Shown here in pieces: positions 1 through 14,747 of a stretch of 17,535 nt of DNA (the stretch's first letter is position 1; every line of letters starts with the position of its first letter). Under the pieces are notes generated by a model, which was given only the letters and a program-made list of their open reading frames with translations, had not been told where the DNA came from and made no database searches. The stretch is from Halogeometricum borinquense DSM 11551 (GTDB lineage: Archaea; Halobacteriota; Halobacteria; Halobacteriales; Haloferacaceae). Made by a program: the position numbers and the translations under genes. Where the stretch lies: assembly GCF_000172995.2 (NCBI RefSeq), contig NC_014737.1:1-17535 (forward strand), given 5' to 3'.

Positions 1-49
1 TTTTCGAACTGAACCGGGTCCGAGATTTTCAGTCGGCTGAGAGGATATT

Positions 50-144
50 CGCGCGCGCGTAGCACAGGACTGGTAGGGAGTTATCCCGGGGGGAGGGTGT
101 TATAGCGCGCGCATTTCGCGCATATACGCGCGTTAGGTGTTATA
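50..144. repeat. Non-coding patch with three alternating pyrimidine/purine (CG/TA) tracts and a 9-bp direct repeat GGTGTTATA
   Basis: Read directly. CGCGCGCGCGTA (50-61), GCGCGCGCAT (105-114) and CGCGCATATACGCGCGT (117-133) strictly alternate Py/Pu. GGTGTTATA occurs at 96-104 and 136-144. No credible ORF covers the region. Confidence 0.6.
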
Positions 145-203
145 CTACTGGAATACTGGAGAATAGCGGTCAGAGAGAGCCACTTCTCTCACAGAACAGA
201 CAG

Positions 204-266
204 TTTTTCGCTCGATTTTCTTTTTCTTCTTCTTTCTTTTCTCGCTGACTCGCTCTTTCTCTCGTC
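204..266 (+). repeat. Polypyrimidine (T/C) tract with a 28-nt pure pyrimidine core at 216-243
   Basis: Read directly: TTTTCTTTTTCTTCTTCTTTCTTTTCTC at 216-243, flanked by further T/C-rich sequence. It stands out against the GC-rich background. A small hairpin GAGAGA/TCTCTC (173-178/185-190) and a T5 run (204-208) lie just upstream. Confidence 0.7.
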
Positions 267-484
267 GAGGACGGACGCGCTCGCTGGTCGCGCGTGCAGC
301 TGGCGCTCGCGGTCGCGCTGCTCGCCCAGCCGCTCGGGCACGATCACGTCGGCGCGGGTGAGCGCGGACGTCCAGGAGGGCGGGCACGCCCGCGATTGCC
401 GCGCCGGCGAGCACACGCACGCTCTTCGTGGACGCGTCGCTCGGGAGCGAACGTGTACACACGGACGGGCGCGAAAAGGCGCGC

Positions 485-1663
485 TCAGGCGTACGAGACC
501 TTCAGCGTCATGTCGATGGGCGACGGGATGTGAGCCGCCTTCACTGGCGGGTACTGGAACTCCGACTCGCTGAAGGGCATGAACATCCCGACGTCGCGGG
601 AGGACATGATGTCGTCCTCCATCGGCACGCGCCGGAAGCCGACGACGTCGCCCGAGTTCGTCGGGTTCGCGGTGCCGTTCATCGTCACGCGCCAGCGGAT
701 CTTCCGGCGGATCATCGAGTGGATGTCGGCCTCGCTGTGCCCGAACGCGAAGATGGAGTGGCCGTACTTCCGCGCGTCCACCCAGCAGTCCTTGAGGAGT
801 TCGACCTTCTGGTAGTGAGCGTACTCGTCGTTCCGTGCGGCCTCGGGCGCGATGTCGCCGATCTCGTCGAACATGATGGACGACCAGTGGTGCGGCCCTT
901 CGGCGATGCGGGCGTGCATCCAGCCGAACCACCAGTGGTTGAGCGGGTCGTCCTCGCTGAACTCCAGGCCGTCGTACTGCTTCTCCTGGTCGTTCTCGTA
1001 GATTTCCTGAAGCCGGCGCATCTTCGGGTCTGGGTAGACGACGTGGAACTGACCGGGCTTCAGGAGGTCGTGGTTGAGGTGGACAGGGTCGCGGTACCGG
1101 ACGACCTCGCGGACGATCTCCTCCAGGTCCACCTCGAACCCTTCCTGCGTCGGGTCCTTCGGCACGAACCGCGCCTCGATGTCCACGCCCTTGGGCAGGC
1201 AGACCCGCGCCCAGGGCGCGAACGGCAGCCACTCCGAGCGCGACGTCGAGGCGCGCCAGATGACCTTCTCGTTGTTCGCCTCCATCAGGCGCACGGCCAG
1301 CCAGAGAGCGAGGTTCGACTTCCCCGAACCCGGCGGGCCGACAGCCAGCCAGTCGGTACCGCCGACCGACAGCTGGTGATCGTCCGGGTCCCAGTCGTGG
1401 AAGATGATGTTCGGCAGGAGCTTCTTCCGCAGCTTCCGCTCCCCGGCTTCGGCGTAGGCCTTCCCCTCTGCCTCTTCCTCGGTGTAGGTGGCGTCCCACT
1501 CCATCTTCGGGATGCCGAACGCCCGCTTGATGTCCCAGAAGTCGTCGTGACACCGCTGGTCGCCGGTGTACTGCTTCGACGTCGTGTGCGGGTCGGGGAA
1601 CTCCGCCAGGATCTCTTCCTTGCGCTTCGTCTCGGTGGTGTCGGTGGGGTTCTGTGTGCTCAT
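485..1663 (-). CDS. P-loop NTPase of unassigned family; last gene of the four-gene operon
   Basis: 392-aa acidic ORF with high GC3. The ATG at 1663 overlaps the upstream stop (ATGA). Walker A GPPGSGKS is at nt 1316-1339. A Walker B-like SSIMFDEIGD is at about nt 863-877, roughly 150 aa downstream. No TM segment or second recognisable domain. Confidence 0.85.
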   Translation of the reverse strand: MSTQNPTDTTETKRKEEILAEFPDPHTTSKQYTGDQRCHDDFWDIKRAFGIPKMEWDATYTEEEAEGKAYAEAGERKLRKKLLPNIIFHDWDPDDHQLSVGGTDWLAVGPPGSGKSNLALWLAVRLMEANNEKVIWRASTSRSEWLPFAPWARVCLPKGVDIEARFVPKDPTQEGFEVDLEEIVREVVRYRDPVHLNHDLLKPGQFHVVYPDPKMRRLQEIYENDQEKQYDGLEFSEDDPLNHWWFGWMHARIAEGPHHWSSIMFDEIGDIAPEAARNDEYAHYQKVELLKDCWVDARKYGHSIFAFGHSEADIHSMIRRKIRWRVTMNGTANPTNSGDVVGFRRVPMEDDIMSSRDVGMFMPFSESEFQYPPVKAAHIPSPIDMTLKVSYA

Positions 1664-2463
1664 ACGCTGATGTGGTCGCCAACGTCGCCGTTCTCGTCTT
1701 CCTCTTCCTCACTCGTCTCCTCGCCGGCGCGGTCCACGAGCTTGCGTACGCCCGCGTTGAAGGCCGGGAGCAACTGCACCGCGACGAGGCTCTTCCGGAA
1801 CCACGCGCTCCCCTTCCCGTCGTTGAGACTGTACTCCATCGACGGGTCACTCAGGAGGTTGTCCCGAGAGACCCGGTCGCTCATCCGCAGGCCCGTGATG
1901 ACGTCGCGGTCGATCTGGCCGTACGACGCGCCGATCAGGCCGCGGACCCAGTCGAGGAGCTCCTCCTCGTCCTCGAAGCCCCCGAGGACGTCCTCGATGG
2001 TCTCCCGCTGGCGTTCGTGCAGCTCCTCCAGCGCAGGGCGCAACGCCACCGGGTCGGTCGCCCGCGTCACTGGCCGGTCCTCGGGGCGGACGTACTCGTT
2101 CGCGTTCTTCCGTAGCTTCCGGTAGGACTGCCTGAACGCCGGAAGGAGGAACGTCTCCTCGAACCCCAGACGGAACCTCTTCGCGGTCTGGAGGTCGGTC
2201 GGTTCGTCGAGGAGCGTGTTGTGCCGGTCGGGGCCGACGATGAGGCACGCCTTCGAGTTGCTCTCGACGAACGCATCGGTGAGGTCCTCGTCGGGGAAGC
2301 AACCGAGCGTCGCCACCGAGACCTCCTGAAGCCAGAACAGCAGATCCTCGGACGACTCGAAGCCGTCCCGGAGGCGGGTGACGAGGTCGTCGTGGTCGGC
2401 CTCCAGCTTGCTCAGCGCCGGGCGCGACGTCGAGGCGATCTCCCGGTCGGTGTCGGAACTCAT
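1660..2463 (-). CDS. Acidic hypothetical protein, paralog A (internally duplicated ~125-aa module)
   Basis: 267-aa ORF. Its start overlaps the upstream stop and its stop overlaps the NTPase start. It is a clear paralog of 2460-3248, sharing RPAL..LE..HDDLV..LR.GF, LGC, ELLDW, GQID, LLPAFNAGVRKLV and the C-terminus EEEED..GDHI[S/D]V. Internal repeat: RPAL at aa 14 and 142; LLPAF at aa 106 and 231. Confidence 0.8.
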   Translation of the reverse strand: MSSDTDREIASTSRPALSKLEADHDDLVTRLRDGFESSEDLLFWLQEVSVATLGCFPDEDLTDAFVESNSKACLIVGPDRHNTLLDEPTDLQTAKRFRLGFEETFLLPAFRQSYRKLRKNANEYVRPEDRPVTRATDPVALRPALEELHERQRETIEDVLGGFEDEEELLDWVRGLIGASYGQIDRDVITGLRMSDRVSRDNLLSDPSMEYSLNDGKGSAWFRKSLVAVQLLPAFNAGVRKLVDRAGEETSEEEEDENGDVGDHISV

Positions 2464-3248
2464 ACGTCGATGTGGTCTCCCGCGCTCTGGTCGTCCTCTT
2501 CCTCTTCGACGGTGTCCTCGCCAGCCTTCCCAACGAGCTTGCGTACGCCCGCGTTGAACGCCGGCAGCAGGAACTCGAAGGCGAACAACTGGCGGGTCTT
2601 CCGGGCCGCGCTGGGGTCCTCGAACTCGTCGAGGAGCACCTCCTGCGTGACGCGGCTCTCCTTGAAGGCGCGCACCTGGAACTCCGAGTCGATCTGGCCG
2701 AACGTCGCGCCGTTCAGGTCGCGGAGCCAGTCCAAGAGCTCAGGCTTCCCGCCTTCGATACCGTCGAGGAGTTGAGACAGCGTCTCCTTCTGCCGCTCCT
2801 CCAGGTGATCCAGCGCCGGGCGCATCGCTATGAACTGCTCGTCGGCGACGGTGACGGTGTCGTCCTTGTCGTCACCGAAATACTCGCCGGCGCTCCCCCT
2901 GAGCTTCCGGAACGCCGACCGCGTCGCCGGGAGAACGTAGGTCGCCTCCACCAGCAGACGGAACTCTTCGGCGGCCTCCAGGCTCACCGTGTCGTGCCCG
3001 TACCTCTCGCGCTCAGGCGACGTGATCAGCGTGGACCAGAGGACGCGCTCGTTCCCGAACTGCTGGTAGAGGCCGTCGTCGAGGCACCCGAGCGTCCGCA
3101 TGGAGAGCCGCTGGCACCAGAAGATGACCTCGTCCAGTGAGTCGAACCCCGCGCGGAGTTCAGCAACGAGATCGTCGTGCTCCTCCTCCAGCCGGCGCAG
3201 CGCAGGCCGACCGAAGTCCTTCCGACTGGGCGCGCTCTCGCTGCTCAT
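2460..3248 (-). CDS. Acidic hypothetical protein, paralog B (internally duplicated ~125-aa module)
   Basis: 262-aa ORF with ATGA overlaps at both ends. It has the same motif set as paralog A. RPAL is at aa 14 and 143; VLPATRSAFRKLR and LLPAFNAGVRKLV end the two halves. The C-terminus is EEEEDDQSAGDHIDV. Confidence 0.8.
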   Translation of the reverse strand: MSSESAPSRKDFGRPALRRLEEEHDDLVAELRAGFDSLDEVIFWCQRLSMRTLGCLDDGLYQQFGNERVLWSTLITSPERERYGHDTVSLEAAEEFRLLVEATYVLPATRSAFRKLRGSAGEYFGDDKDDTVTVADEQFIAMRPALDHLEERQKETLSQLLDGIEGGKPELLDWLRDLNGATFGQIDSEFQVRAFKESRVTQEVLLDEFEDPSAARKTRQLFAFEFLLPAFNAGVRKLVGKAGEDTVEEEEDDQSAGDHIDV

Positions 3249-4420
3249 CGGCCACCCTCCAGTTCGGTCAGCAGCGCGTCCAGCCGCTCCGAGTCGTACT
3301 TGTCCGGCGTGAAGTCCATCGCCTCCAGGAGGCCGTCGAAGCCCTCGGGGCGCTCCCAGCCAGCCGCTGCGAGGACGGCGTCCCAGAGCGTGACGAACTC
3401 CTTCAGTTGGTCGTCCTCGTCGATAGCGAACTCGTCACCGGCGTTCTCGTAGTAGGTCTGGATGATGACCGGGTTCGGCATCAGTTCCTGGACGTCGTGG
3501 AACTCCTCGAACCCGATGTCGGTCTTGTCGATGTCGTCCCGCAGCGCCCACACCAGCACCTTCGAGAGGTCCTCGTAGAGCTGGTCGAAGTTCATCGGGA
3601 TGGACTGCGGGATCGGCGTCGCCATCATCGACCCCTCGATGAGCGGGCTCACCCGACGCTGGTGCTCGGGGAGGTCCATGTCCTCGTCGAACTCGGGGAT
3701 ATCCTCTTCGGGCGCATCCTGCGCGCGCAGGTTCTCCGCGCGGTCGCGCATCATCGCCTCGAAGGCCGCCTCGCCCGGGTTCTCGCGGTCCGGGTCGAAG
3801 TACGGGCTGTCCATCATCATCTCGTCGGTGAGCCCGTAATCCTTCTCGCGGGCGAGGACGCTCTGCTCCTCCAGCGAGAGCTTCTCACCTTCCTCGTAGC
3901 GCTCCTCCAGTTCCTCCGACGTCGTCCGGCTCTCGACCTCGACGTCGAAGGTGACGTCCACCTCGACGTGGTCTCCGTGGCCGCGGGCGAACTCCTTCTC
4001 GGCGTCCTCGATGGCGCGCTCCAGGACGTTCCCGAAGCCACGCTCCAGGCCAACCGACTTCAGTCCGAGGTAGACGAACTTGAAGAGCCGGCGCAGCGCG
4101 ACGCTGGAGGTGCCGTTCACCCAGCCATCGCGCACCTTCTCGAAGACCGGGCGACGTTCGTCCTCGGGAAGCTTCGCCAGGTAGTCGAAGTCGAGGATTG
4201 CGTTGTAGACCCGTTCACGGATGCGTGAGCGCCGCTTCCGGGCGGTCTGTTCGGTGAGGTCCAGCGAGCCCTCGGGGTGGGTGAGGTACTCGCGGTCAGC
4301 GGTCGTGAGGATGCCGCGGGGCCGATCCAGTTCTTCCTCCAGGCGCGACTGTGCGTCTCGGTCGCCCGCGTCCTCCGGTGGTTCTGTCATACTCATTTTG
4401 GTGTGACGCCCTTCCGTCAC
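3245..4420 (-). CDS. Acidic hypothetical protein with an N-terminal putative DNA-binding motif; first gene of the operon
   Basis: 391-aa ORF with high GC3. The N-terminal ILTTADREYLTHPEG...ARKRRSRIRERVYNAILDFDYL resembles a motif I recall at the N-termini of haloarchaeal putative regulators (recollection only). GTG at 4420 gives the longest ORF; ATGs at 4396 and 4390 are alternative starts. A TATA-like TTATAAAA on the minus strand (4440-4447) sits 20-27 nt upstream of 4420. Confidence 0.8.
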   Translation of the reverse strand: MTEGRHTKMSMTEPPEDAGDRDAQSRLEEELDRPRGILTTADREYLTHPEGSLDLTEQTARKRRSRIRERVYNAILDFDYLAKLPEDERRPVFEKVRDGWVNGTSSVALRRLFKFVYLGLKSVGLERGFGNVLERAIEDAEKEFARGHGDHVEVDVTFDVEVESRTTSEELEERYEEGEKLSLEEQSVLAREKDYGLTDEMMMDSPYFDPDRENPGEAAFEAMMRDRAENLRAQDAPEEDIPEFDEDMDLPEHQRRVSPLIEGSMMATPIPQSIPMNFDQLYEDLSKVLVWALRDDIDKTDIGFEEFHDVQELMPNPVIIQTYYENAGDEFAIDEDDQLKEFVTLWDAVLAAAGWERPEGFDGLLEAMDFTPDKYDSERLDALLTELEGGR

Positions 4421-4439
4421 AATAGTATTTCTCCCGTAC

Positions 4440-4447
4440 TTTTATAA
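4440..4447. promoter_or_regulatory. Palindrome-like TATA box TTTTATAA in a divergent intergenic region
   Basis: An AT-rich octamer in a GC-rich context. It is positioned correctly for the minus-strand operon start (4420/4396). It could also fire rightward, with a TSS near 4470-4475. Confidence 0.4.
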
Positions 4448-4524
4448 TATGGGGGTACGATAGGCGAGAGTAGAGGTGAACTCGACGGACTCACGGCTAC
4501 GAAGGTAACTTCGCCAGAAAGGCG

Positions 4525-4687
4525 CGAGGGAAGGTGTCCTGGCAGACTGCTTCCCTCGAACCAAACGCGACTGGGTGAGAGTCGCGGTGGTGAACTCGGG
4601 ACGGACCTACGGCGTGGTCTTGGTCCTACCGAGAACGTGGAGGCCCGCAGGCTTAAAACTGCGGGCTTCTGTGACGATATTCGTCAC
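4525..4687 (+). other. Hairpin-rich non-coding leader or candidate sRNA upstream of 4811
   Basis: Four consecutive perfect stems, read directly: CGAGGGAAG/CTTCCCTCG (4525-4533/4550-4558); CGCGACT/AGTCGCG (4566-4572/4580-4586); GCCCGCAG/CTGCGGGC (4643-4650/4659-4666); GTGACGA-TAT-TCGTCAC (4671-4687). The ORFs here (4575-4814 +, 4607-4933 -) are basic and not coding-like. Confidence 0.35.
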
Positions 4688-4810
4688 GTTCACGGTTCCT
4701 TTCTCATCCGGTCGGAGGAACGCCCCGCGCCTGGAAGACTGGGCATCCACCGACCACACGATGCAAACCCGATCTAACGTACACGAACGGCCCGAAGGCG
4801 GTGATTCGGC

Positions 4811-5074
4811 GTGAGCGTGCGCCGGCTCACCGTAGACGAAGCCGCGCAGCGCAACTGGGACGACCCGGAGGCTCTCGAAGAGCTCCACGTCCGCCGTGGG
4901 TGGGCTCCCGCCGACATCGCGCGGAAGTTCCAAACCGACGCGGCCACCGTCCGAGAAGAACTGAAGCGCCAGAACCTCTTCCAGAAGGACCAGTCGCTCC
5001 CCCCGAAGCAGGGGTTGGCCCGGAAACTCTGGGAGATGGGCACCGACCCGGATGCGGGTGGTGAGAAAGCGTGA
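4811..5074 (+). CDS. Small putative helix-turn-helix protein
   Basis: 87-aa ORF with a GTG start and high GC3. The segment WAPADIARKFQTDAATVREELKR looks like an HTH. Its stop overlaps the next gene's start (GTGA). Confidence 0.65.
   Translation: MSVRRLTVDEAAQRNWDDPEALEELHVRRGWAPADIARKFQTDAATVREELKRQNLFQKDQSLPPKQGLARKLWEMGTDPDAGGEKA
5047..5058 (+). repeat. Copy 1 of the 12-mer CCCGGATGCGGG
   Basis: Exact match inside the 3' end of CDS 4811-5074 (codons D-P-D-A-G). The extended 15-mer CCCGGATGCGGGTGG is the exact reverse complement of 12120-12134. Confidence 0.9.
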
Positions 5075-5313
5075 GCGCCGGAACCTCTCCGAGCGGGTCC
5101 GTCGCGGAGATCGTCGAGGACCTCGGCGGCACCGACACCGTCACCGTGGACCTCCCCGGCGTCGTCGTCGAGGCCGTGGACGCCGCCTGCTGCGCTGCTC
5201 TCGGCTGCCGCGTCAGCGAACCGCTCTCCCGAGTCACCATCGACGGGTTCGGCACTCGCGTCCTCTGTCCCGATCACGTGGAACACCTCATCGAACGCGA
5301 GGTCGAAGCATGA
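5071..5313 (+). CDS. Small acidic Cys-containing protein (possible metal-binding)
   Basis: 80-aa ORF with a GTG start, preceded by GGTGGTGA (5057-5064) at 6-nt spacing. Cysteine pattern: CC..LGC ... CPDH. Confidence 0.6.
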   Translation: MSAGTSPSGSVAEIVEDLGGTDTVTVDLPGVVVEAVDAACCAALGCRVSEPLSRVTIDGFGTRVLCPDHVEHLIEREVEA

Positions 5314-5336
5314 GGTTCAGGCGCGGACACCCTACG

Positions 5337-5343
5337 TTTATAA
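5337..5343 (+). promoter_or_regulatory. TATA-like box TTTATAA
   Basis: The only AT-rich heptamer in the 5314-5629 gap. It would place a TSS near 5368-5372, about 260 nt upstream of the 5630 start. Confidence 0.35.
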
Positions 5344-5405
5344 CGACTGCGCGGAAAGACACGCGAAAAGCAAGGCTAACCAATCAGCGCCTGACAGAAG
5401 CCGGT

Positions 5406-5527
5406 TCGGGGTGGTCGGTTCCACCCCGAAGGTTGGACACCTACGGCTTCTGTCGGCACCGACGTAAACTTACCGCCTCGCCCTTAGAGGCGGGTCTGCG
5501 TCTCGGTGCTGGCGTCGTTGTACGACG
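5406..5527 (+). other. Hairpin-rich non-coding leader or candidate sRNA upstream of 5630
   Basis: Perfect stems, read directly: TCGGGGTGG/CCACCCCGA (5406-5414/5421-5429); GTCGG-CA-CCGAC (5452-5463); CCGCCTC/GAGGCGG (5473-5479/5487-5493); CGTCGT-TGT-ACGACG (5513-5527). It shares CCTACGGC and GGCTTCTGT-plus-palindrome with the 4421-4810 leader. Confidence 0.35.
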
Positions 5528-5629
5528 TCGGGTGCTCGCCGAAACGACACCCATCATGAACGACACCAGCGACGACCACCACGACGAACAGGCCAACGAC
5601 CGAGCACCAGCCGCACGGGTGAGCTACTG

Positions 5630-6943
5630 ATGGCAGGCGACGAGGTGCCGGACGTCGAAGCAGGGACCGAGGAACTCCTCGACGAGGCCGAAGAGATCGA
5701 CAGCGACGACGGGATGACCGCTCGGATGCGCCGGGAGAACCAACTCCTCGGGCGTGCCGTGGACTACGTGGCCGCCTGGAGCGAGGACGGCGCGATCTCC
5801 AGCGCGAACGCGAACGCGCTCGCCGATGCGCTCGCCAGCGAACTCGCGCACTACACGAAGACCGACATCAAGGACGAGTTCACCGACGTCTTCGTGGACG
5901 ACGGGAGCGGGGCGAACGGCATCCCGTTCGACGAACTCATCGAGCAGCGCCTCCAGGAGGTGAAGGTCGTCTCCACGACCGACGCGAAGCAGGGCCTCGT
6001 CTGGCGCTGGCACTTCAGCGACGGCGTGCAGCTGGAGACCGAGAAGTCGAAGGACGAAGGGCGGAAGCACTACGACTGGACCGCCTGGAAGGAGGACTAC
6101 TTCGAGGCGCTCATCAGCCTCGGGAAGGGCGAGCGCATCGCCCCGCCCTCCCGTGAGCGCCGGGACAGCAACGACTGGAAGGAGTTCCTCAGCGAGATCC
6201 TCCTCGACCGGGCCGAGACTGTTGAGCACGTCGGCCCGCGCACCGAAGCGGTCGAACATCTCCGCGACTACGTGAACCGCCAGACGGCGTACGCCGACGT
6301 GAAGGATATGCGCGACCGGCAGGGGATCTGGATGGACGCACCACCAGCCGACGACGACGGCGAAGCCGCCACCGACGGCGGTGGACCGTCCCAGATCCGC
6401 GTCCCCACCCAGGCCGTGAAGCGCATCTGCGACCAGGCGGGCATCGAGACCCGTGCGCTCCAGATCGAACTGGACGCCCGCAGCGAGACTCTACCCGACG
6501 TCGCCGGCGTCTCCGACTACGAGTACGTGGACGGCCAGCGCGTCTCCTTCTGGTGCCTCGACGCCGGCTTCGCCGAACCCGCCGAGTTCGTCGAGGAGCC
6601 CGAGAGCCCCGCCGAACAGGCGGCGCGGGAGCAGGAGGAAGAGGCCGAAGAGGCCCAGACCGACGTCGGCGCGGTGGATGACAAGGACGACTCGGACGGC
6701 ACCGAGAGCGAACAGGAGACCGACGACGTCACCGAGGACGGCGACGAGGGCGACGAGGACGCCCACGACGGCCCCGCCACGTCCGACGAGACCGAGAGCG
6801 CAGAGGACGACGTGGACGGCCACACGGAGGACGAGAGGCCGCCTGAGGACGCACCGGACGACGGACCAGCGAACGACTTCGAGTCGGGGATCACCGGCGG
6901 CTTCGGGATCGACCCGGACGACGACGACGAGGGAGGTGAGTGA
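5630..6943 (+). CDS. Hypothetical protein with an extremely acidic, low-complexity C-terminal tail; first large gene of the replication operon
   Basis: 437-aa ORF. The ATG overlaps the stop of a 24-codon upstream mini-ORF (TGATG). GGGTGA lies 7 nt upstream. About the last 120 aa are almost entirely D/E/T/G/P/A. No recognisable catalytic motif. Confidence 0.85.
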   Translation: MAGDEVPDVEAGTEELLDEAEEIDSDDGMTARMRRENQLLGRAVDYVAAWSEDGAISSANANALADALASELAHYTKTDIKDEFTDVFVDDGSGANGIPFDELIEQRLQEVKVVSTTDAKQGLVWRWHFSDGVQLETEKSKDEGRKHYDWTAWKEDYFEALISLGKGERIAPPSRERRDSNDWKEFLSEILLDRAETVEHVGPRTEAVEHLRDYVNRQTAYADVKDMRDRQGIWMDAPPADDDGEAATDGGGPSQIRVPTQAVKRICDQAGIETRALQIELDARSETLPDVAGVSDYEYVDGQRVSFWCLDAGFAEPAEFVEEPESPAEQAAREQEEEAEEAQTDVGAVDDKDDSDGTESEQETDDVTEDGDEGDEDAHDGPATSDETESAEDDVDGHTEDERPPEDAPDDGPANDFESGITGGFGIDPDDDDEGGE

Positions 6944-6945
6944 GC

Positions 6946-8832
6946 ATGCCGATGGACCTTGAGGACATCGAAATCACGGGAATCGAGGATGTTCCAGTCA
7001 CCGAATCGCTCGCCTACCACGGCCCGCCGGGTACCGGGAAGACGTCGAAGTCGGCGGCCCGGGTAGCGAAGCTCATCCAGGACCACGACTACGGCATCGA
7101 GGACGTCGCCTGGGTGACCTACAGACGCTCGCTCGCCCGCGACACGCTCGCACGGCTGGCGTCCTGGGACATCATCGACCCGTCCGAGCTGGAGAACCCG
7201 AGCGACGGGGCCACCCGCTACATCGGCACCGCACACGCGGTCGCCAACCGCTGCGCTTCCATCGGCGAGGGTGTCGTCGAACCGTGGCACCGCTCCGACT
7301 TCTGCGAGAAGCGAGGGATGCAGTTCTGGACGTCGGAACCCTGGGAGGACAGCGCCGGGAAGCTCCTCTTCCGGGTTCTCGACTACCTCGCCAACGCGAA
7401 CACCACGCCCGAGGACAAGGCCGCGCTGCGCGAGTGCCCGCACACCGACGATCTCCGCGACCACTGGCAGGGCGACATCGTCGAGGCGTGGTACGAGTGG
7501 GAGGACTACAAGGGCCAGATGAACATCATCGACTTCCACGAGATGCTGAAGCGCCCGCTCCAGGAGGGCGAGTCTCCCGGACGGCCCATCCTCGTCATCG
7601 ACGAGTACCACGACGTCACCGCTCTGATGGACGCTCTCTTCCGGTCCTGGATGGAGGACGCAGAGATCGTCATCGTCGCCGGCGACCCGCACCAGGTGGT
7701 GAACGCCTACGACGGGGCCAGCCCGGCTTTCTTCGAGGACCTCGACCTCCCGACCGTCCTCCTGGACACTACCTACCGCGTCCCCGAAGAGCACTGGGCG
7801 CTCGCCACGCGCATGCTCGCCGACGCCCACACTCCGCCTGCGGTCACCCGCGACGGACGAGGGCGTGTGAACGACATCAACAGCCCGCGCTTCGAACACT
7901 CCGAAGAGAACGGCTGGGTGAACCTGCCGGGCCGCGACACGCCGGGGTCGCCGGGCTGGATCTGCGAGAAGTTCGGGCGTGAGGAGACGCTGTTCCTCAC
8001 CCGGACGCGGATGCAGGCCGACGGCGTCGGGGCAGCCCTCGAAGCCGCCGGCATCCCGTATCGCTCGCAGCCGGAGCTCCACGGCTGGAACACCGAGGAG
8101 ACCGACATCCGTCTCGCCGTCCACAACGCGCTTCAGAAGATCGAAGGGTACAGCCCGGCGAACTTCCGCTACGGCGGAAACAAGGCCTTCGGCGAGTACA
8201 CGGGGAACAACAAGAACCCCGCCGACATCTCGCTGAAGAACAGCGAGGCCGCGGCCCTCCTGGAGGCGACGTCGGCGCACGACCTCGACATCACCCGGTC
8301 CGATGCGAACGACCTCGTCGAGGAACTGCGCGACGACGAGGACGGCCACCTTACCCTCCGGGAGTTCGACGACTACGTCACGAAGTCGTTCTGGGAGCGC
8401 TACACCGCCGGCGCAGGATCGGTGAACCGGCTGAACAAGGGACCGTTCGGGTCCGGGTCGTCCGGCGAGCGCGAACTCCGGGCACTCCGGGCCGCGCTGA
8501 ACCGGCAGGACGGCCCGATCAGCCCCGACTCGATCAGCTGCCACGCCATCACCATCCACGCCTCGAAGGGGATGGAGGCCGACGACGTCGTCGTCTACGA
8601 CGGCATCAGCAACCGCATCCTCCGAGAGATCCAGGTGAACGACGAGTCCCGGCGGAACGAGTACCGCACGTGGTACGTCGCGCTCTCGCGGGCGAAGAAG
8701 CGCCTGCACGTGATGCGCGACGGGTTCGCCTGGACGAACAGCATCATCCCCGAGAACCTCCAGGCCGCGGCCCGCGAGGCCTACCAGGAAGGCCACGTGG
8801 ACGGCGATCTCCCCGGAGGTGAGACGGCGTGA
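6946..8832 (+). CDS. Superfamily 1 (UvrD/Rep/PcrA-like) DNA helicase
   Basis: Motifs read in order: I GPPGTGKT (nt 7021-7044); II LVIDEYHD; III VAGDPHQ; IV TTYRVP; V ITIHASKGMEADDVVV; VI WYVALSRAKKRL. The longest ORF starts at GTG 6940. GGAGGTGA (6932-6939) followed by 6 nt favours ATG 6946. Confidence 0.9.
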   Translation: MPMDLEDIEITGIEDVPVTESLAYHGPPGTGKTSKSAARVAKLIQDHDYGIEDVAWVTYRRSLARDTLARLASWDIIDPSELENPSDGATRYIGTAHAVANRCASIGEGVVEPWHRSDFCEKRGMQFWTSEPWEDSAGKLLFRVLDYLANANTTPEDKAALRECPHTDDLRDHWQGDIVEAWYEWEDYKGQMNIIDFHEMLKRPLQEGESPGRPILVIDEYHDVTALMDALFRSWMEDAEIVIVAGDPHQVVNAYDGASPAFFEDLDLPTVLLDTTYRVPEEHWALATRMLADAHTPPAVTRDGRGRVNDINSPRFEHSEENGWVNLPGRDTPGSPGWICEKFGREETLFLTRTRMQADGVGAALEAAGIPYRSQPELHGWNTEETDIRLAVHNALQKIEGYSPANFRYGGNKAFGEYTGNNKNPADISLKNSEAAALLEATSAHDLDITRSDANDLVEELRDDEDGHLTLREFDDYVTKSFWERYTAGAGSVNRLNKGPFGSGSSGERELRALRAALNRQDGPISPDSISCHAITIHASKGMEADDVVVYDGISNRILREIQVNDESRRNEYRTWYVALSRAKKRLHVMRDGFAWTNSIIPENLQAAAREAYQEGHVDGDLPGGETA

Positions 8833-10118
8833 GCACCGGCGCGTTCACGGTGCCGATGGAGACGTCGAGGCGCTACATCCCCGAGGAGATGAAGGAGTTC
8901 GACCACTGGGTCCTCTGGTCACCCGAGTTCGGGAAGCAGATCATGGCCCCGTGGGTGACCGGGCACTGCTACCCGGCCAGCTGGGGCGAGCAGGAGACCG
9001 AGCGTCCCGAGACGACCTTCGAGAAGGCGAAGATGCTCGCCGACCTCCCGACCGAGGAGGTCCACCGGACGTACCCGTTCCCGCCGAAGGACGGCGAGGA
9101 GGAGCCACACGTCCCGGAGCGCATCATCCCGACGTTCCTGCTGCTTCACGACCCACCGGAGCCACCGCTGATGCAGGTGGACTTCGACGACGTCCGGGAC
9201 CCCGCATCCGGGTGTGTCTCCGAGGAGGTCGAGGAGATCGTCGAACGCCTCGATGCGTTCACCGAGGTCTCGCAGTCTGGCGAGGGGCTCCACGTCTTCG
9301 TGAGGGCAGAACTCCCCGGCGGTCTCGGGAAGTTCATCGCCGAACTGGACGACGTCGGCGAGATAGAGATGTACGACCACGGGCGCGTCGTCGGCGCGAC
9401 CTGGAGGCACGTCGAGGGGACGCCGACCGACGTCCCCGAGCGGCAGGACGTCGTCGAGGACCTCATTAAGACCTACGAGAGCGAGGAGTACCGCCAGCGC
9501 CGGCTCCGCTCCTCGTCCGAGGATGCGTCGGAGACCGACTGGAACAGCGACGTCTCCGGGATCGAGGCCGCCATCCGGAACCGAGAGAACGACAGCTCCA
9601 GCAGCGGGCGGTCACCGTACTTCGACATCGACATCCGGTCCATCGCCGACACCGGCGACTTCTCGCGCTATCGACGAGAGACGCCGGGCGACGAGTGGCA
9701 GGGACCGCACCCGGCTCACGGGCCGATGCACAGCGACCCCGAGGAGTGTACGAACTTCGGGGTGGAACCGAGCGGGAACACCTGGTTCTGCTTCGCGCAC
9801 AACGCGGGAGGTCGCGCGATAGAGCTGGCCGCGGTCCTCGCCGACGAGGTGGACGTCAGCTGCGCCGACATCCCGAAGCGCGGTGCCGGCCAGGGCTGGC
9901 TGGGAGATCGTCCGGTGAAGATGCTGAAGACCTGCCTCTGGCTCCGTGATCACGCCGGCGTCCCCGACGACACGAAGCCACCCCACGCCGCGCTGCTGGG
10001 CGTGGCCGACGTCGAGGACCTCTACGTCCGTGACCGCGACCGCGGCATCCTCGGTGAGAAGAACGCCGAGCTGTGCCGGCGAGTCTTCGACGAGATGACG
10101 CTGGACTACTTCGAGTAG
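8829..10118 (+). CDS. Archaeo-eukaryotic primase superfamily primase-polymerase (PrimPol) with a C-terminal zinc-finger-like motif
   Basis: AEP motifs: QVDFDD (nt 9180-9191), SGEGLHVFV, IEMYDHGR. The C-terminal HPAHGPMH...CTNFGV...WFCFAHNAGGRAIELAA resembles a primase CHC2-type zinc finger. The GTG start overlaps the helicase stop (GTGA), and GGAGGTGA (8815-8822) lies 6 nt upstream. Confidence 0.9.
   Translation: MSTGAFTVPMETSRRYIPEEMKEFDHWVLWSPEFGKQIMAPWVTGHCYPASWGEQETERPETTFEKAKMLADLPTEEVHRTYPFPPKDGEEEPHVPERIIPTFLLLHDPPEPPLMQVDFDDVRDPASGCVSEEVEEIVERLDAFTEVSQSGEGLHVFVRAELPGGLGKFIAELDDVGEIEMYDHGRVVGATWRHVEGTPTDVPERQDVVEDLIKTYESEEYRQRRLRSSSEDASETDWNSDVSGIEAAIRNRENDSSSSGRSPYFDIDIRSIADTGDFSRYRRETPGDEWQGPHPAHGPMHSDPEECTNFGVEPSGNTWFCFAHNAGGRAIELAAVLADEVDVSCADIPKRGAGQGWLGDRPVKMLKTCLWLRDHAGVPDDTKPPHAALLGVADVEDLYVRDRDRGILGEKNAELCRRVFDEMTLDYFE
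9201..9212 (-). repeat. Copy 2 of the 12-mer (reverse complement CCCGCATCCGGG)
   Basis: Exact match inside the PrimPol CDS, just after the DFDD motif. Confidence 0.9.
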
Positions 10119-10227
10119 GCCAGCCCCTCCGCCCCCCGATCTTCTTCTGACCGACGTCGCCGATCTCCTCCAGGAGCAACTGCGCCTTCTCATCGACCCC
10201 CGTCTGTCCGACCTCTCTACTGTATAA

Positions 10228-10375
10228 GGGTGATTCGACCCCCCTTGCCATCTCAGTTTACCCGAAGTAAACCGCGCTTGCAGTCCTATTACTTAACTAC
10301 TGGGGTCAGTCGGGGGGTTCTGCGAGGAGAGTTTTCGACAGGTAATCTGAGATGGCAACCCGGGTCGAGTGACCC
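10228..10375. mobile_element. MITE-like element or long hairpin: 29-bp imperfect terminal inverted repeats around a 90-bp core
   Basis: Left arm GGGTGATTCGACCCCCCTTGCCATCTCAG (10228-10256). Right arm CTGAGATGGCAACCCGGGTCGAGTGACCC (10347-10375). They are 24/29 complementary, and the inner 12 bp are perfect. TAA lies on both flanks (10225-10227, 10376-10378). There is no ORF inside. Confidence 0.45.
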
Positions 10376-10419
10376 TAATATAGTCATGCCACTTCTGAAC
10401 CACCTCGATCTCGACCTAC

Positions 10420-10431
10420 CCCGGATGCGGG
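10420..10431 (+). repeat. Copy 3 of the 12-mer CCCGGATGCGGG
   Basis: Exact match, intergenic, about 180 nt upstream of recombinase gene 1. It shares CCCGGATGCGGGGG..TCG with copy 5. Confidence 0.9.
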
Positions 10432-10454
10432 GGGTCGAGGATGCCGGGTTTCGA
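10423..10454 (+). repeat. Two tandem imperfect 16-bp repeats (GGATGCGGGGGGTCGA / GGATGCCGGGTTTCGA)
   Basis: Read directly. The first unit overlaps copy 3 of the 12-mer and sits inside a nested hairpin CTCGACC...GGTCGAG (10410-10416/10433-10439). Confidence 0.5.
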
Positions 10455-10596
10455 GGGGTGTGGAGCCTGAGCCGCCTGAATCGGTGATTTACCGACTCAT
10501 GCCGATAGCTGGATTAGTGACATGAGACGTTTCGACGGAACGGCTGAGCCGTCCGAAATTAGCCTCTTCAGAGGTTCCCGGGTAACTTTCCCAGCG

Positions 10597-10602
10597 TTTA
10601 TA
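10597..10602 (+). promoter_or_regulatory. TATA box TTTATA for recombinase gene 1
   Basis: It lies 25-30 nt upstream of the in-frame ATG at 10627, which is leaderless geometry. It is only 13-18 nt upstream of ATG 10615. Confidence 0.45.
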
Positions 10603-10614
10603 CTGACATGACTC

Positions 10615-11295
10615 ATGTCAATATCTATGGGAACTGGCCATTTCAACAAGGACCGCATCACCCACCTCGAACGGTACCGGCCACTGGAACCCGACCAGAT
10701 CCCCACCTGGAAGGAAGCCGCCAAGGATGGGAAGCCCATCGAGGAACTGCTCGGACTCACCCTCCTCCACACAGGGATTCGCCGGACGACGATGGCGCAC
10801 ATGACAGAAGCCTGGCTGAACCTCGACGACGAAGAGAACCCGCACGTGAAGATCCCGCCTCGTCAAGAGTGTACGCTCGGTCGCGGGAAGCAGGGAAGCG
10901 GTGGCGACACGAAGAACACCGGACAGCCCTGCTACAACTGCCGCGAGAAACGCCCCGGCTACTGGAAGCCGAAGTCCCACCACGGCGTCCGCCCCATCCC
11001 GATCCGTGAGGAAGACGTCGAAGAGATCCTCCGGAACTACTTCTCGGTCCACGACACCGTAGGAGGCCGGGAGAAGGTGAACTACTACGTTGAGAAAATC
11101 TCCGACCGCGCCGATCTCGGACGCGAGGTCACACCCCACGACCTCCGGAACACGTACGGAACGAGACTGGCGCGGAAAGGCTTCACACCCCACGAAATCA
11201 TGCATCTGATGGGTCACTCCTCCATCGGCATCGCTCGATTCTACATCAAGATGAGCGGTACCCGCCTCGGGCTGGCCTACGACGAAAAATGGTAG
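10615..11295 (+). CDS. Tyrosine recombinase/integrase (short form with a Cys-containing insertion)
   Basis: Catalytic signature: HTGIRRTT (Arg I), WKPKSHHGVRPIP (Lys hairpin), HDLRNTYG (H-x-x-R), GHSSIGIARFY (His/Tyr). Cys insertion: C..x..CYNC. The TATA spacing suggests the true start may be ATG 10627. Confidence 0.9.
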   Translation: MSISMGTGHFNKDRITHLERYRPLEPDQIPTWKEAAKDGKPIEELLGLTLLHTGIRRTTMAHMTEAWLNLDDEENPHVKIPPRQECTLGRGKQGSGGDTKNTGQPCYNCREKRPGYWKPKSHHGVRPIPIREEDVEEILRNYFSVHDTVGGREKVNYYVEKISDRADLGREVTPHDLRNTYGTRLARKGFTPHEIMHLMGHSSIGIARFYIKMSGTRLGLAYDEKW

Positions 11296-12107
11296 AGGAG
11301 AAGACGCTCACCGACTACAACGGACGACCGCTCGCCGACGCCAGCCAGCCCCTCGACCAGGAGCAGCTGGCCGCGTGGCGGGAGGCCGCCCTGGAAGCCG
11401 ACGGCGTGAAGCGCCTCGCCGGACTGCTGTCGCCGTACACGGGCTTGCGGAACTCCACGGTCGCGCACCTGCGCCCCAGCTGGGTCGTCTACAAGACGAA
11501 GATTCCCGAAATCGTGGTTCCCAGCGAAGCCCCGTGCAACCTCGGGAACGGTGACGACGCCTGCTACCGGTGTCAAGTGAACCGAGACGGCACCTGGAAG
11601 CCGGAGAGTCCCCACGGCGCACGTCGCGTTCCGGTTCCCGACGAGGACGTCGTCGAGGCGCTCAGGGACTACTTCGCGCTCTACGACAAGCTCCGCACCG
11701 AGCAACGGCTCCGCACCTACCTGAAGGACCTCGTCAAGGACGCCAGCCTCCAGCGCGACGTGAACGCGCACGCTCTTCGACACACCTACGGAACGATTCT
11801 CGCCCGGAAGGGCTTCGAGATCGAGACGATGCGCCAGGCGATGGGGTACTCGATGGACGAAGACAACGGGCGCTTCGCGGTTCGTCGATACATCCAGTTC
11901 GTCGATGAACGCGAAGAGGAGAGGTACGCCTGTGGGGCTGACCGAGCGCAGGGTGGCACCTGTGAGATGCCGGTAGACACGCCCGACGCGCGCTGTTACG
12001 TCCACGACGACCGCGTCATCACCTGTTCGGCGACGAACCGGTACGGCGAACCCTGCCACCGGATCGTCGATCAACTCACCCAGCGCTGCGCGTTCCATCA
12101 AGACTGA
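11289..12107 (+). CDS. Tyrosine recombinase/integrase paralog with a C-terminal tandem CCCH extension
   Basis: It overlaps the upstream gene by 7 nt. Motifs: YTGLRNST, WKPESPHGARRVPVP, HALRHTYG, GYS...RRYIQF. Same Cys insertion (C..x..CYRC). It adds two C-x9-C-x10-C-x2-H units at nt 11931-12098. Confidence 0.9.
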   Translation: MVEEKTLTDYNGRPLADASQPLDQEQLAAWREAALEADGVKRLAGLLSPYTGLRNSTVAHLRPSWVVYKTKIPEIVVPSEAPCNLGNGDDACYRCQVNRDGTWKPESPHGARRVPVPDEDVVEALRDYFALYDKLRTEQRLRTYLKDLVKDASLQRDVNAHALRHTYGTILARKGFEIETMRQAMGYSMDEDNGRFAVRRYIQFVDEREEERYACGADRAQGGTCEMPVDTPDARCYVHDDRVITCSATNRYGEPCHRIVDQLTQRCAFHQD

Positions 12108-12122
12108 CCTTCTGAGCCTCCA

Positions 12123-12134
12123 CCCGCATCCGGG
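12123..12134 (-). repeat. Copy 4 of the 12-mer (reverse complement)
   Basis: Exact match, intergenic. It lies 16 nt after the recombinase-2 stop and 25 nt left of unit A. Confidence 0.9.
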
Positions 12135-12159
12135 CGAGGACTGAACTGGGTTCGAGAAC

Positions 12160-12212
12160 CGACCGTCCTAAACAACATCGGGGCGGTGAATAGGAAAGTG
12201 TTGTTTAGGGCG
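12160..12212. repeat. Palindromic unit A (14-bp stem, 21-nt loop); direct copy of unit B
   Basis: CGACCGTCCTAAACAACAT (12160-12178) and AAAGTGTTGTTTAGG (12195-12209) are identical to unit B. The arms CGTCCTAAACAACA / TGTTGTTTAGGGCG pair with one G-T wobble. It lies between the convergent stops at 12107 and 12228. Confidence 0.75.
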
Positions 12213-12227
12213 TGAAGAGAAATCGGC

Positions 12228-12824
12228 TCACTTCCCGAGGTACTTCGTTCGAACCTTGTCGCCCTCGCGCCACTTCGCATAGCGGTAGGGACCGTGAGGA
12301 CAGCCATCGCAACCGGGTCCACACGGCACTTTCATCTTGTAGACGTTCACCGAGACGCCGTCTGGAACCTCGTCCAGGTCGTCGCCATCAACATCTTCCT
12401 CGACGTCGTCCACCTCGCCCTCCGCTGGCGGTTCCTCCAGCTGCTCTCTCGCTTCGGCTTCGAGGAACGCAGCACGCTCTTCGGCCCAGTCGGCGAGGTC
12501 GCGGAGCCGATCTGCGCCCTGCCGTTCAACGGCCTCGACCACGTACTTCGGAAGAGACGCCGGCGGACGCGGCTCGGTGCTGGGCGCATCCTCCACGCCA
12601 CCGGGGTCGTCGCGCGGCACGATTTCCTCGACGTTGGTGAACTGAAGACGTCGAACGACGAGGTCCTCTTCCTCAACGTCCAACGGTCCGAAACCCAGGA
12701 ACCGGTGGTCGTCTTCGAGTTCTACGACGCGCCAGCGTTCTCCTTCGACTTGGAACCCATCGTAGAGGACGATGTCGCCGGGCTGGAGCCGGTCGCGGAT
12801 GATGTTTCGTTCTCGGATGCTCAC
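12228..12824 (-). CDS. Acidic hypothetical protein with a C-terminal Cys-rich PHGPY zinc-ribbon-like motif
   Basis: 198-aa ORF. GTG at 12824 is the only possible start, because an in-frame stop lies 3 codons upstream. GGTGAT lies 5 nt upstream. The C-terminus is VPCGPGCDGCPHGPYRYAKWREGDKVRTKYLGK. GC3 is high. Confidence 0.8.
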   Translation of the reverse strand: MSIRERNIIRDRLQPGDIVLYDGFQVEGERWRVVELEDDHRFLGFGPLDVEEEDLVVRRLQFTNVEEIVPRDDPGGVEDAPSTEPRPPASLPKYVVEAVERQGADRLRDLADWAEERAAFLEAEAREQLEEPPAEGEVDDVEEDVDGDDLDEVPDGVSVNVYKMKVPCGPGCDGCPHGPYRYAKWREGDKVRTKYLGK

Positions 12825-12893
12825 GGTGCATCACCGGTAGTGATTCGTTCGGGGTGCAGTGGGTGGTCGTGCATGGTGATCTGGACGGAGTGG

Positions 12894-12947
12894 CGACCGT
12901 CCTAAACAACATTCCAACCTCTATTGCCAAAAGTGTTGTTTAGGACG
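12894..12947. repeat. Palindromic unit B (perfect 14-bp stem, 22-nt loop); direct copy of unit A
   Basis: CGACCGTCCTAAACAACAT (12894-12912) and AAAGTGTTGTTTAGG (12930-12944). The arms CGTCCTAAACAACA (12898-12911) / TGTTGTTTAGGACG (12934-12947) are perfectly complementary. The loop sequence differs from unit A. Confidence 0.75.
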
Positions 12948-12958
12948 CAGAGAAGCCA

Positions 12959-12970
12959 CCCGGATGCGGG
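12959..12970 (+). repeat. Copy 5 of the 12-mer CCCGGATGCGGG
   Basis: Exact match, intergenic, 11 nt right of unit B. Confidence 0.9.
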
Positions 12971-13001
12971 GGTCGGTTCGCGGTCCATCGTACCCCAGCG
13001 G

Positions 13002-13006
13002 TTTAA
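13002..13006 (+). promoter_or_regulatory. TATA-like TTTAA upstream of 13032
   Basis: It lies 26-30 nt upstream of ATG 13032, consistent with a leaderless transcript. Confidence 0.35.
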
Positions 13007-13031
13007 CCGGGTTCCTCACCTCGATGACAGT

Positions 13032-13430
13032 ATGACCGTGGAAGAGACGCTGAAACAGCGATTCACGGGACTCCCTTCCGACCAGAACGCGGTGGACGCG
13101 TCGTGCTGCAAGCGCTGTCGAGAATACGGCTCCCTCGAAGAGATGGAGTTCGACGAGAACGAGCGCGTCTACGCGACCGTCGCCTGGAAGAAGAACCTGC
13201 GCGGTGAGGCCAGCTGGGAACTCATCGGCCTCTTCCACCAGGACCACGGCGACGTCGCCGATCTCCCCGAGGACCCGCGCCGGCCCTGCGCAGTTCTGGA
13301 GGTGACACTCGAACCGAGCAACGCGCTCCCCCGCTTCGGCCAGATCGACGGCGCGGCGTTCACGCTCGGGCAGGTGGACGTCCTCGACACCGCCGGCGTC
13401 GTCGCCCGGAAAACGGTTGCTGCTGACTAA
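13032..13430 (+). CDS. Acidic hypothetical protein
   Basis: 132-aa ORF from ATG 13032. The track's 12924 start adds a basic, non-coding-like extension that would cover unit B. GC3 is high and the protein is acidic. It overlaps the convergent gene's stop by 4 nt. Confidence 0.65.
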   Translation: MTVEETLKQRFTGLPSDQNAVDASCCKRCREYGSLEEMEFDENERVYATVAWKKNLRGEASWELIGLFHQDHGDVADLPEDPRRPCAVLEVTLEPSNALPRFGQIDGAAFTLGQVDVLDTAGVVARKTVAAD

Positions 13431-13846
13431 CCCTGTTCTTCGAACCACTGCGGAGCGCCCGTGTACTCGCTCCAGCAGCGCTTGTGACACGGCTCCCCTC
13501 GGGCGTTCGGTATCGCTCGGTCGAAATCGACCTGCTTTCCACAGAGGTCACACTCAGCGCTGTGCCCGTGCATCCGAGCGTCGTTCGAGAGCCCCTTTGT
13601 CTCGATGTACAGCTCGTGCAGCGCCCGCGGAGTGAGCCGGACCAGCACCTTCTCGCGGTCGTCCGGGTTCCGCTTCTCTGGCGTGTACGTGAGCACCCAG
13701 TCCTGGCCGGGTTCTCCGTCACCGGCTGGCCCGAGGGAGATCGTCTGCGCGAGTTCGTCCGGAACGTAGTGCCACTCGTTGTCTCTGAACCTCGGGTAGT
13801 GTCCCTCCGGGCGTGGGTTCTCCGGATCAACGTCGTCTTCGGTCAT
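13427..13846 (-). CDS. Hypothetical protein with a C-terminal zinc-finger-like motif
   Basis: 139-aa ORF. Its ATG overlaps the upstream stop (ATGA). Motif: HGHSAECDLCGK...CHKRCW. Confidence 0.7.
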   Translation of the reverse strand: MTEDDVDPENPRPEGHYPRFRDNEWHYVPDELAQTISLGPAGDGEPGQDWVLTYTPEKRNPDDREKVLVRLTPRALHELYIETKGLSNDARMHGHSAECDLCGKQVDFDRAIPNARGEPCHKRCWSEYTGAPQWFEEQG

Positions 13847-14684: not shown

Positions 14685-14738
14685 CTGAGTGTCGTTTTCT
14701 TTCGTGGTGGGTGTTCCGCGAAGGGTCGCGGAGGATTC

Positions 14739-14747
14739 TTTTATAAA
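14739..14747. promoter_or_regulatory. Palindromic TATA element TTTTATAAA
   Basis: An AT-rich nonamer 55-63 nt upstream of the recombinase ATG at 14684. It lies in the divergent gap between the recombinase and the TA pair. Confidence 0.35.

Follow-up and report, generated by a model that had tools for sequence, protein, structure and literature searches.

A Walker-type ATPase that is specific to viruses and plasmids has been described from archaeal mobile elements as 'related to ABC transporters' and as forming a tandem with ORF137/tn2-7p, a small gene that precedes it (PMC2926602, PMC3543421). Members of this family are tn2-8p of plasmid pTN2, p12-10p of pP12-1, ORF375 of Pyrococcus abyssi virus 1 (PAV1) and proteins of a Methanococcus voltae provirus (PMC2926602, PMC3543421); in 2010, open reading frames (ORFs) of the pNG plasmids of Haloarcula marismortui were noted to belong to it as well (PMC2926602). 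PAV1 and the pTN2-family plasmids have an ORF137-ORF375 cassette in common (PMC3543421). Here, we present a computational analysis of a four-gene operon in a 17,535-nucleotide stretch of DNA from Halogeometricum borinquense DSM 11551 (contig NC_014737.1, positions 1 to 17,535), to which we refer as the window. We found that this operon is a plasmid-type version of a conserved archaeal mobilome cassette, consisting of a nucleoside triphosphatase (NTPase) with a predicted FtsK-HerA fold and a translationally coupled partner. The ATPase family and its cassette are already known, and the operon is a variant of the cassette rather than a categorically new system. What is new are the FtsK-HerA fold assignment, which is model based, the partner family and the repeat within it, the extent and strength of the synteny of the pair, and the two architectures in which it occurs. 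The operon comprises the following genes.

Gene 1, 3245 to 4420, minus strand: 391 amino acids (aa), GTG start, N-terminal DUF8102 domain.
Gene 2, 2460 to 3248, minus strand: 262 aa, all-alpha partner protein of the 'g23' family.
Gene 3, 1660 to 2463, minus strand: 267 aa, second, divergent copy of the gene 2 partner family.
Gene 4, 485 to 1663, minus strand: 392 aa, P-loop NTPase of the PAV1 ORF375/pTN2 tn2-8p family.

All three gene junctions consist of the minus-strand tetranucleotide ATGA (3245-3248, 2460-2463, and 1660-1663), exactly where the initial annotation, which was made from the sequence alone, had placed its start/stop overlaps. Such overlaps are frequent in prokaryotic operons and, taken alone, unsurprising. 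Also borne out is the view that the genes are expressed together, that they are part of a mobile element, and that they diverge from a replication operon; the latter includes a superfamily 1 (SF1) UvrD-like helicase (6940-8832, plus strand) and a primase-polymerase (8829-10118, plus strand). As stated previously, none of the four proteins has a transmembrane segment (no 19-residue window with a Kyte-Doolittle mean above 1.2). The GC content of the window is 62-68% and the encoded proteins are acidic, as in Halobacteria.

Based on sequence comparisons, gene 4 is a member of the PAV1 ORF375/pTN2 tn2-8p family of virus and plasmid ATPases. Among 50,697 virus records searched with gene 4 using tblastn, a single virus was matched, PAV1, with its ORF375 (E 9e-10, 27.5% identity over 236 aa); by phmmer, the E value for ORF375 was 1.4e-15. 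A hidden Markov model (HMM) of the ATPase family matched PAV1 ORF375 at 6e-22 and the ATPases of pTN2, pP12-1, and pIRI48 at ~1e-15. The homologs recovered include those of the haloarchaeal pNG plasmids, i.e. the ones named in the 2010 paper, and of three thermococcal plasmids. Altogether, the ATPase homologs make up at least 273 clusters at 90% identity, essentially all of which are from Halobacteria or hypersaline metagenomes. Comparisons of gene 4 with Pfam, NCBIfam, and PDB sequences gave nothing significant (best E value in the PDB profile search, 0.12), and in PHROGs it matched phrog_22963 at 3e-17. Thus, the NTPase is not the orphan that it had been taken for; the PAV1 ORF375/tn2-8p/pNG-plasmid family was published in 2010 and 2013. 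The setting of gene 4 is that of a mobile element, with integrases, a helicase, and a primase-polymerase in the window and relatives in integrated elements and plasmids.

The Walker A motif of gene 4 (GPPGSGKS, residues 109-116) and its Walker B motif (IMFDE, residues 263-267) are 154 aa apart, in agreement with the motifs and the distance of about 150 aa given in the initial annotation. In an alignment of 45 sequences, G109, G112, G114, K115, D266, and E267 are invariant. R298, which is part of an ARKYG motif after the strand following Walker B, is also invariant and K299 nearly so; the position of R298 fits that expected of an arginine finger, making it a candidate trans-acting finger. An AlphaFold2 model of gene 4 built on the same alignment had a predicted local distance difference test (pLDDT) score of 90 and a predicted template modeling (pTM) score of 0.89. 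When compared with the PDB using Foldseek, this model gave 78 matches at E≤1e-3, and the best 50 were all HerA, the B204 genome-packaging NTPase of STIV2/STIV, the N-terminal domain of Zot, EccC, or TrwK/VirB4. In a library of viral structures, the matches were the putative packaging ATPase of PH1, a corticovirus NTPase, Zot, phage FtsK-like proteins, and A32-like packaging ATPases. ABC, SMC, and Rad50 structures were absent from the best 50 PDB matches, an LSGGQ/SGG-type signature is absent from the family consensus, and the ABC families of Pfam were not matched at E≤1. Because the best structural matches do not include ABC or SMC proteins and the consensus does not include LSGGQ, we assign the gene 4 family, as modeled, to the FtsK-HerA fold class and not to the ABC class. 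We accordingly rejected an ABC-type ATPase, which is the label used in the literature and the RefSeq name of the pTN2 and pIRI48 homologs, for want of both the signature and ABC structures among the matches. A distance of ~150 aa between Walker A and Walker B is ordinary in the FtsK-HerA/VirB4/Zot class; therefore, the spacing is not the oddity that it had been considered to be.

Gene 4 shares with STIV2 B204, the A32-like ATPases, and HerA the core fold (Foldseek probability 1.0, E ~1e-6, template modeling [TM] score 0.60-0.67 normalized to B204), Walker A and B, and the conserved R-K after the strand following Walker B. It differs from them in that there is no sequence-level homology in the PDB profile search mentioned above, in that it has an additional helical domain (~100 aa) at its N terminus, and in that a beta-rich segment is inserted between the two Walker motifs. 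In contrast to the module in which an A32-like ATPase is combined with a jelly-roll capsid protein, neither the window nor the related loci contain a jelly-roll capsid gene, so that the fold of the ATPase is all that they have in common with this module.

Genes 2 and 3 are paralogs (44% identity; BLASTP, E 1e-53), supporting their description as a tandem pair in the initial annotation, in which it was missed that a unit of ~125 aa is duplicated within each of them (hhalign of the N-terminal half against the C-terminal half, probability 99.3%, E 2e-20). In the AlphaFold2 model of gene 2 (pLDDT 80, pTM 0.78), the protein forms two modules that consist of helices only, and its acidic tail is disordered. 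Foldseek gave no structural neighbor of gene 2 in the PDB below E 0.5, and the partner has no sequence neighbor in the PDB either. In an exhaustive HMMER search of 1.84 billion representatives, we recovered 225 clusters of the partner family at E≤1e-3, of which 211 were also found at E≤1e-10. It is a compact family of uniform length, nearly all members having 240-310 aa, and contains no invariant residues of the catalytic type. Gene 2 ends in the acidic tail followed by GDHIDV. More generally, every partner protein has an acidic linker and then a short hydrophobic C-terminal peptide; plasmid-type copies have GDHI(S/D/G/E)V here, and the others have ESLKA or ELGA. This peptide may be a docking tail.

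We compared 35 loci from haloarchaeal genomes with 80 from metagenomes, 69 of which had room to test the upstream gene; individual loci are given L numbers below. The partner gene is located directly upstream of the ATPase gene in 33 of the 35 genome loci and in 64 of the 69 testable metagenome loci (together, 97/104), and in 29 of 36 loci the partner stop codon overlaps the in-frame ATG or GTG of the ATPase gene (ATGA or GTGA). Conserved synteny, which the initial annotation had raised for the quartet as a whole, is thus very strong for the partner-ATPase pair; the full quartet is rare. Two tandem partners with a DUF8102 gene in first position are present only in the window, L048, and L003, and L051 has a trio of DUF8102 gene, single partner, and ATPase. 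The window-type form (DUF8102, one or two partners, ATPase, and no membrane genes) is confined to these four plasmid-like loci. Of these, L048 is a near-identical relative in which the replication module differs; in L003 and L051, a separate ParA is encoded beside the operon. The ATPases of the window and L003 are 81% identical, while the partner copies are ~30% identical, indicating that the partner evolves far faster than the ATPase. Gene 2 is 57% identical to the single partner of a locus of the second architecture described below (L004), and gene 3 is closest to the only partner copy in the trio locus L051 (39% identity), indicating that the two copies in the window are old and divergent. 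A few ATPases depart from this arrangement. Those of L002, L011, L055-L058, and L063 constitute a subclade of 404-418 aa with an N-terminal extension and without a partner gene. In L002, the ATPase is preceded by a PKD-domain protein instead; a 331-aa protein upstream of this ATPase was considered as a diverged partner and rejected. The pNG100-type ATPase (L049) has 515 aa with a C-terminal extension and no detectable upstream partner.

In ~90% of the related loci (~30 genome loci), the partner-ATPase pair closes a virion-like block of membrane-protein genes. This same-strand module begins with a protein of ~500 aa that has a signal peptide and is anchored at its C terminus, followed by a series of proteins of 90-230 aa with one to four transmembrane segments and a protein of ~570 aa with four to six; it ends with the partner and the ATPase, after which there is usually a membrane protein of 900-1200 aa. 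The proteins of the structural module have no Pfam or PHROG matches, and neither this module nor the window gave a match to a structural protein in the two databases. On the opposite strand, these loci encode a protein of 550-660 aa that is a DUF7845 protein (PF25227, 3.6e-96; phrog_3288, 1e-127), with an integrase nearby. DUF7845 is the rolling-circle initiator Rep-Arvir and is present in SNJ2, the lemon-shaped LSV-48N, and PAV1 (ORF528) (PMC13107129). In our comparison, PAV1 ORF528 matched the haloarchaeal DUF7845 protein at 5.6e-7. The loci with the membrane block have two genes and a similar layout in common with PAV1. They look like proviruses, and we refer to them as provirus-type loci. 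Their apparent tie to LSV-48N/'Almyrocitroviridae' consists in the shared Rep-Arvir initiator only. In some provirus-type loci, MCM takes the place of Rep-Arvir; thus, the replication module can be exchanged, whereas the partner and the ATPase remain associated with the membrane module. The provirus-type loci (L016, L026, and ~30 other genome loci) constitute a large and apparently unannotated family of haloarchaeal integrated elements, each ~12-15 kb in length. Halomontanus rarus has three copies of this element (L028, L029, and L042). A complete haloarchaeal provirus-type locus is also present in an assembly labeled Rhizobium sp. S152 (L035, NZ_JAUDRZ010000015.1); its gene families and gene order are those of Halobaculum litoreum L032 and L033, and this is probably assembly contamination.

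Gene 1 consists of the N-terminal DUF8102 domain of ~170 aa and a variable acidic C-terminal half. The basic N-terminal segment to which the initial annotation drew attention, ADREYL...RKRRSRIRERVYNAILDFDYL, is present and turned out to be the invariant core (D-R-x-R-G, D-R, R-I-R-x-R, D) of this conserved domain. The label DUF8102 is the precomputed PF26404 annotation of two close homologs, P0134 and P0135 (identities of 95% and 79%). The 466-aa product of the first gene of L003 is 32% identical to gene 1 over 185 aa (E 2e-20). An HMM of the DUF8102 domain matched only the window-type loci (the window, L048, L003, and L051) and one cellular gene in L047, and the domain was never found in provirus-type loci. 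Gene 1 gave only noise and no relative among PDB sequences, and metagenome scans with gene 1 had no matches. Based on the basic core, gene 1 is a putative DNA-binding or regulatory protein.

How does this cassette compare with those described previously? Like the PAV1 ORF375/pTN2 tn2-8p cassette, it is specific to archaeal viruses, plasmids, and integrated elements, and in both the ATPase gene comes after a small non-enzymatic gene. As in the pTN2-type plasmids, the ATPase is found alongside an SF1 helicase; the helicase of the window is 26% identical to the pTN2 helicase tn2-1p (E 1e-13), and the primase-polymerase of the window has no BLAST similarity to PolpTN2. Unlike in the ORF180b-ORF137-ORF375 cassette, the partner is a two-repeat protein of ~260 aa without detectable similarity to ORF137/tn2-7p or ORF180b/tn2-6p (hhalign probability <1% for the repeat unit, using thin profiles of four sequences), and in the window there are, in addition, a DUF8102 gene and another copy of the partner. 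The relationship between the window-type elements and the provirus-type loci mirrors that between pTN2 and PAV1 in Thermococcales. In the pR1SE-like plasmids (apHPVs), the HerA/VirB4/B204-like ATPase ORF25 has been proposed to recruit plasmid DNA into vesicles (PMC10818511). The ORF24-ORF25 pair (cluster 2) of these haloarchaeal elements resembles the pair described here in that the ATPase follows a protein without known relatives and closes a block of membrane/structural genes. However, hhalign against ORF25 and ORF24 of pHTUR05 gave probabilities of 0.4% and 0.1%, respectively, the apHPV proteins differ in size (ORF25, ~780 aa; ORF24, ~560 aa), and the window contains none of the apHPV core genes (ORF6-9, ORF17, ORF21, and ORF23-25), S8 protease, or large structural ORFs. 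With profile probabilities below 1%, we rejected a sequence link between the window families and pR1SE/apHPV ORF24/ORF25.

The initial annotation had set packaging and morphogenesis aside. This no longer holds, as the nearest structural relatives of gene 4 are viral genome-packaging NTPases and DNA translocases and the pair closes the virion-like block in most of the related loci. We favor the view that the cassette serves as a motor for the packaging or export of DNA, that it includes adaptor proteins, and that the plasmid has retained it, and give this a probability of roughly 45%, somewhat short of even odds. The cassette common to PAV1 and the pTN2-family plasmids and, independently, the proposed role of ORF25 in the pR1SE-like plasmids are precedents. 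According to this model, the NTPase would be a ring ATPase that moves or loads the DNA of the element, and the helical partners would serve as adaptors between this motor and its cargo or a docking site on the membrane or particle; the DUF8102 protein would recognize DNA or have a regulatory part. The provirus-type relatives would use the pair to fill budding particles, similar to those of lemon-shaped viruses, with DNA. The window-type elements have kept the partner(s) and the ATPase, and their membrane and virion genes are absent; here, the plasmid would be exported or packaged, possibly in particles or vesicles from a co-resident helper element.

Several observations weigh against this model. 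Plasmids without particle genes, namely the window, pTN2, and the pNG plasmids, still keep the ATPase, which could equally mean that its role is independent of particles. ATPase subclades without a partner exist (the L002/L011 type, L055-58, and pNG100). The role of the ATPase family was called 'obscure' in the 2013 paper (PMC3543421), consistent with the initial annotation, in which the function of the operon was treated as uncharacterized. A scan of IMG/VR with the ATPase profile gave no relatives. Finally, the TM-scores of the Foldseek matches are moderate, 0.35-0.41 on the query and 0.60-0.67 on the small B204 target, so that the matches give a fold class and not a function.

We know of no packaging ATPase for PAV1-like and haloarchaeal lemon-shaped or pleomorphic membrane viruses. 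It is conceivable, if rather improbable, that the ORF375-type ATPase and its helical partner are the missing genome-loading motor of these viruses, and that plasmids in which only the motor cassette and a DNA-binding protein are left, such as the window and pTN2, are satellites that would use the cassette to load their own DNA into the particles or vesicles of a co-resident helper virus.

Two alternatives to a packaging or export motor deserve consideration. In one of them, the ATPase would act in membrane assembly or egress in the manner of filamentous-phage pI/Zot or of secretion systems and, instead of moving DNA, power the assembly or extrusion of particle or vesicle proteins, with the partners as assembly chaperones. 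The only Pfam match of gene 4 is to Zot (PF05707, E 0.0017; below the gathering score and covering the region from Walker B to the sensor), the N-terminal domain of Zot (2r2a) and models of inovirus Zot proteins are among the Foldseek matches, and membrane-protein genes surround the pair in the provirus-type loci. However, Zot scores below HerA and B204 in Foldseek, and, unlike pI and Zot, the ATPase and its partners have no transmembrane segment or membrane anchor, gene 4 having no C-terminal transmembrane domain. Moreover, the element is no filamentous phage, and the plasmid-type loci do not encode membrane proteins that could be assembled. We therefore consider an assembly or egress function unlikely.

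In the other alternative, the cassette would be a replication or maintenance accessory that is independent of particles, with the NTPase acting as a helicase-like or loader ATPase or as a resolution/segregation motor of the FtsK type, together with the adjacent replication genes. The cassette adjoins SF1 helicase and primase-type genes without virion genes in the window, L003, L048, and pTN2, proteins of the FtsK type function in chromosome resolution and segregation, and there are weak PHROG matches to DnaB- and DnaC-like families (E 0.04-0.05). Nevertheless, the adjoining replication modules are interchangeable (UvrD with primase-polymerase, MCM, Rep-Arvir, or Orc1), while the constant neighbors are the upstream membrane-protein module and the partner gene. 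With regard to segregation, L003 and L051 have a ParA of their own, and the Walker A motif of gene 4 is not of the deviant ParA type. Together, these observations make an accessory role in replication or maintenance doubtful. We ruled out partition of the ParA/ParB type, as Walker A is GPPGSGKS and not KGGxGK[ST] and there is no match to ParA, CbiA, or AAA_31; this agrees with the initial annotation, in which ParA and restriction-modification modules had been discounted.

Both partition and defense are less likely than a packaging or export motor. An anti-virus or anti-plasmid defense or exclusion module built on a HerA-like ATPase in the style of Sir2-HerA, DUF4297-HerA, or MADS is very improbable: mobile elements often carry defensive cargo, HerA defense complexes (8xav, 8zit, 8uae, and 8j4u) are among the Foldseek matches and PADLOC matched mad8 (6.7e-8), but the four proteins have no nuclease, Sir2, methylase, or other effector domain, and the near-universal, position-fixed synteny within one element family is the behavior of a core gene and not of shuffled defense cargo. 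MADS itself was ruled out, as the other seven of the genes mad1-8 are absent; because the mad profiles were built from HHpred/PDB alignments, the mad8 match reflects the fold only. PADLOC gave nothing for genes 1-3 and the neighboring genes except for generic UvrD/GajB matches of the helicase.

Outside the four genes, the following features adjoin the operon.

TATA-box-like TTATAAAA, 4440 to 4447, minus strand: 19 nucleotides upstream of the GTG of gene 1, as read from the sequence.
Divergent intergenic region, 4421 to 4810, no strand: direct repeat of ~24 nucleotides and two hairpins.
Divergent replication-type operon, 4811 to 10118, plus strand: helix-turn-helix (HTH)-like ORF, two ORFs, SF1 helicase, and primase-polymerase.

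The TTATAAAA box is a putative promoter of the operon, from which a leaderless or short-leader transcript would be made, and it is kept in L048. There, the intergenic region is nearly identical despite the different replication module of that locus. In the window, this region contains the direct repeat at 4475-4497 and 4589-4613 and the hairpins at 4525-4558 and 4640-4669; these elements may be candidate operators or iterons. The replication-type operon begins with an HTH-like ORF of 87 aa (4811-5074), which is followed by ORFs of 192 and 437 aa and by the helicase and primase-polymerase genes; the matches within it are to Pfam UvrD domains (~4e-10), phrog_1967 (1e-39), and primase PHROGs (2e-17).

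Farther along the window, there are three integrase-like genes and a VapB-like gene. Two of the former are adjacent paralogous ORFs on the plus strand (10615-11295 and 11289-12107), each of which matches only the C-terminal catalytic part of tyrosine integrases, and the second also has a match resembling a primase zinc finger. The third, a short integrase of 209 aa (14055-14684, minus strand), clusters with integrases of the provirus-type loci. The presence of three integrase-like genes within 17.5 kb suggests that elements have recombined with one another or that an integrase has been split. The VapB-like gene is a 188-aa ORF (15433-15999, minus strand) with an N-terminal segment similar to VapB antitoxins and DUF7557 (E 7e-6 and 1e-4). 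At the other end of the window, downstream of the ATPase gene, the non-coding positions 1-260 include short GC palindromes, a run rich in A, and TATAACACC twice. This edge of the window is a candidate for an origin or a terminator. Checks of the window for tRNA genes, Rfam families, and terminal overlaps were all negative.

Few genes connect archaeal spindle-shaped viruses with small plasmids and integrated elements, and that of the ORF375-type ATPase is among them. This link spans Thermococcales, methanogens, and Halobacteria, and the role of the ATPase has been 'obscure' since 2007-2013. More than 100 haloarchaeal loci in two architectures, provirus-like and plasmid-like, are now available, and the translationally coupled partner family can be named and searched for. 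The motor hypothesis addresses the exit of DNA from the cell in plasmids and in capsid-less or lemon-shaped elements and is testable in genetically tractable haloarchaea. Should it be wrong, the cassette would still be a useful marker for a large, unannotated family of integrated elements in haloarchaea.

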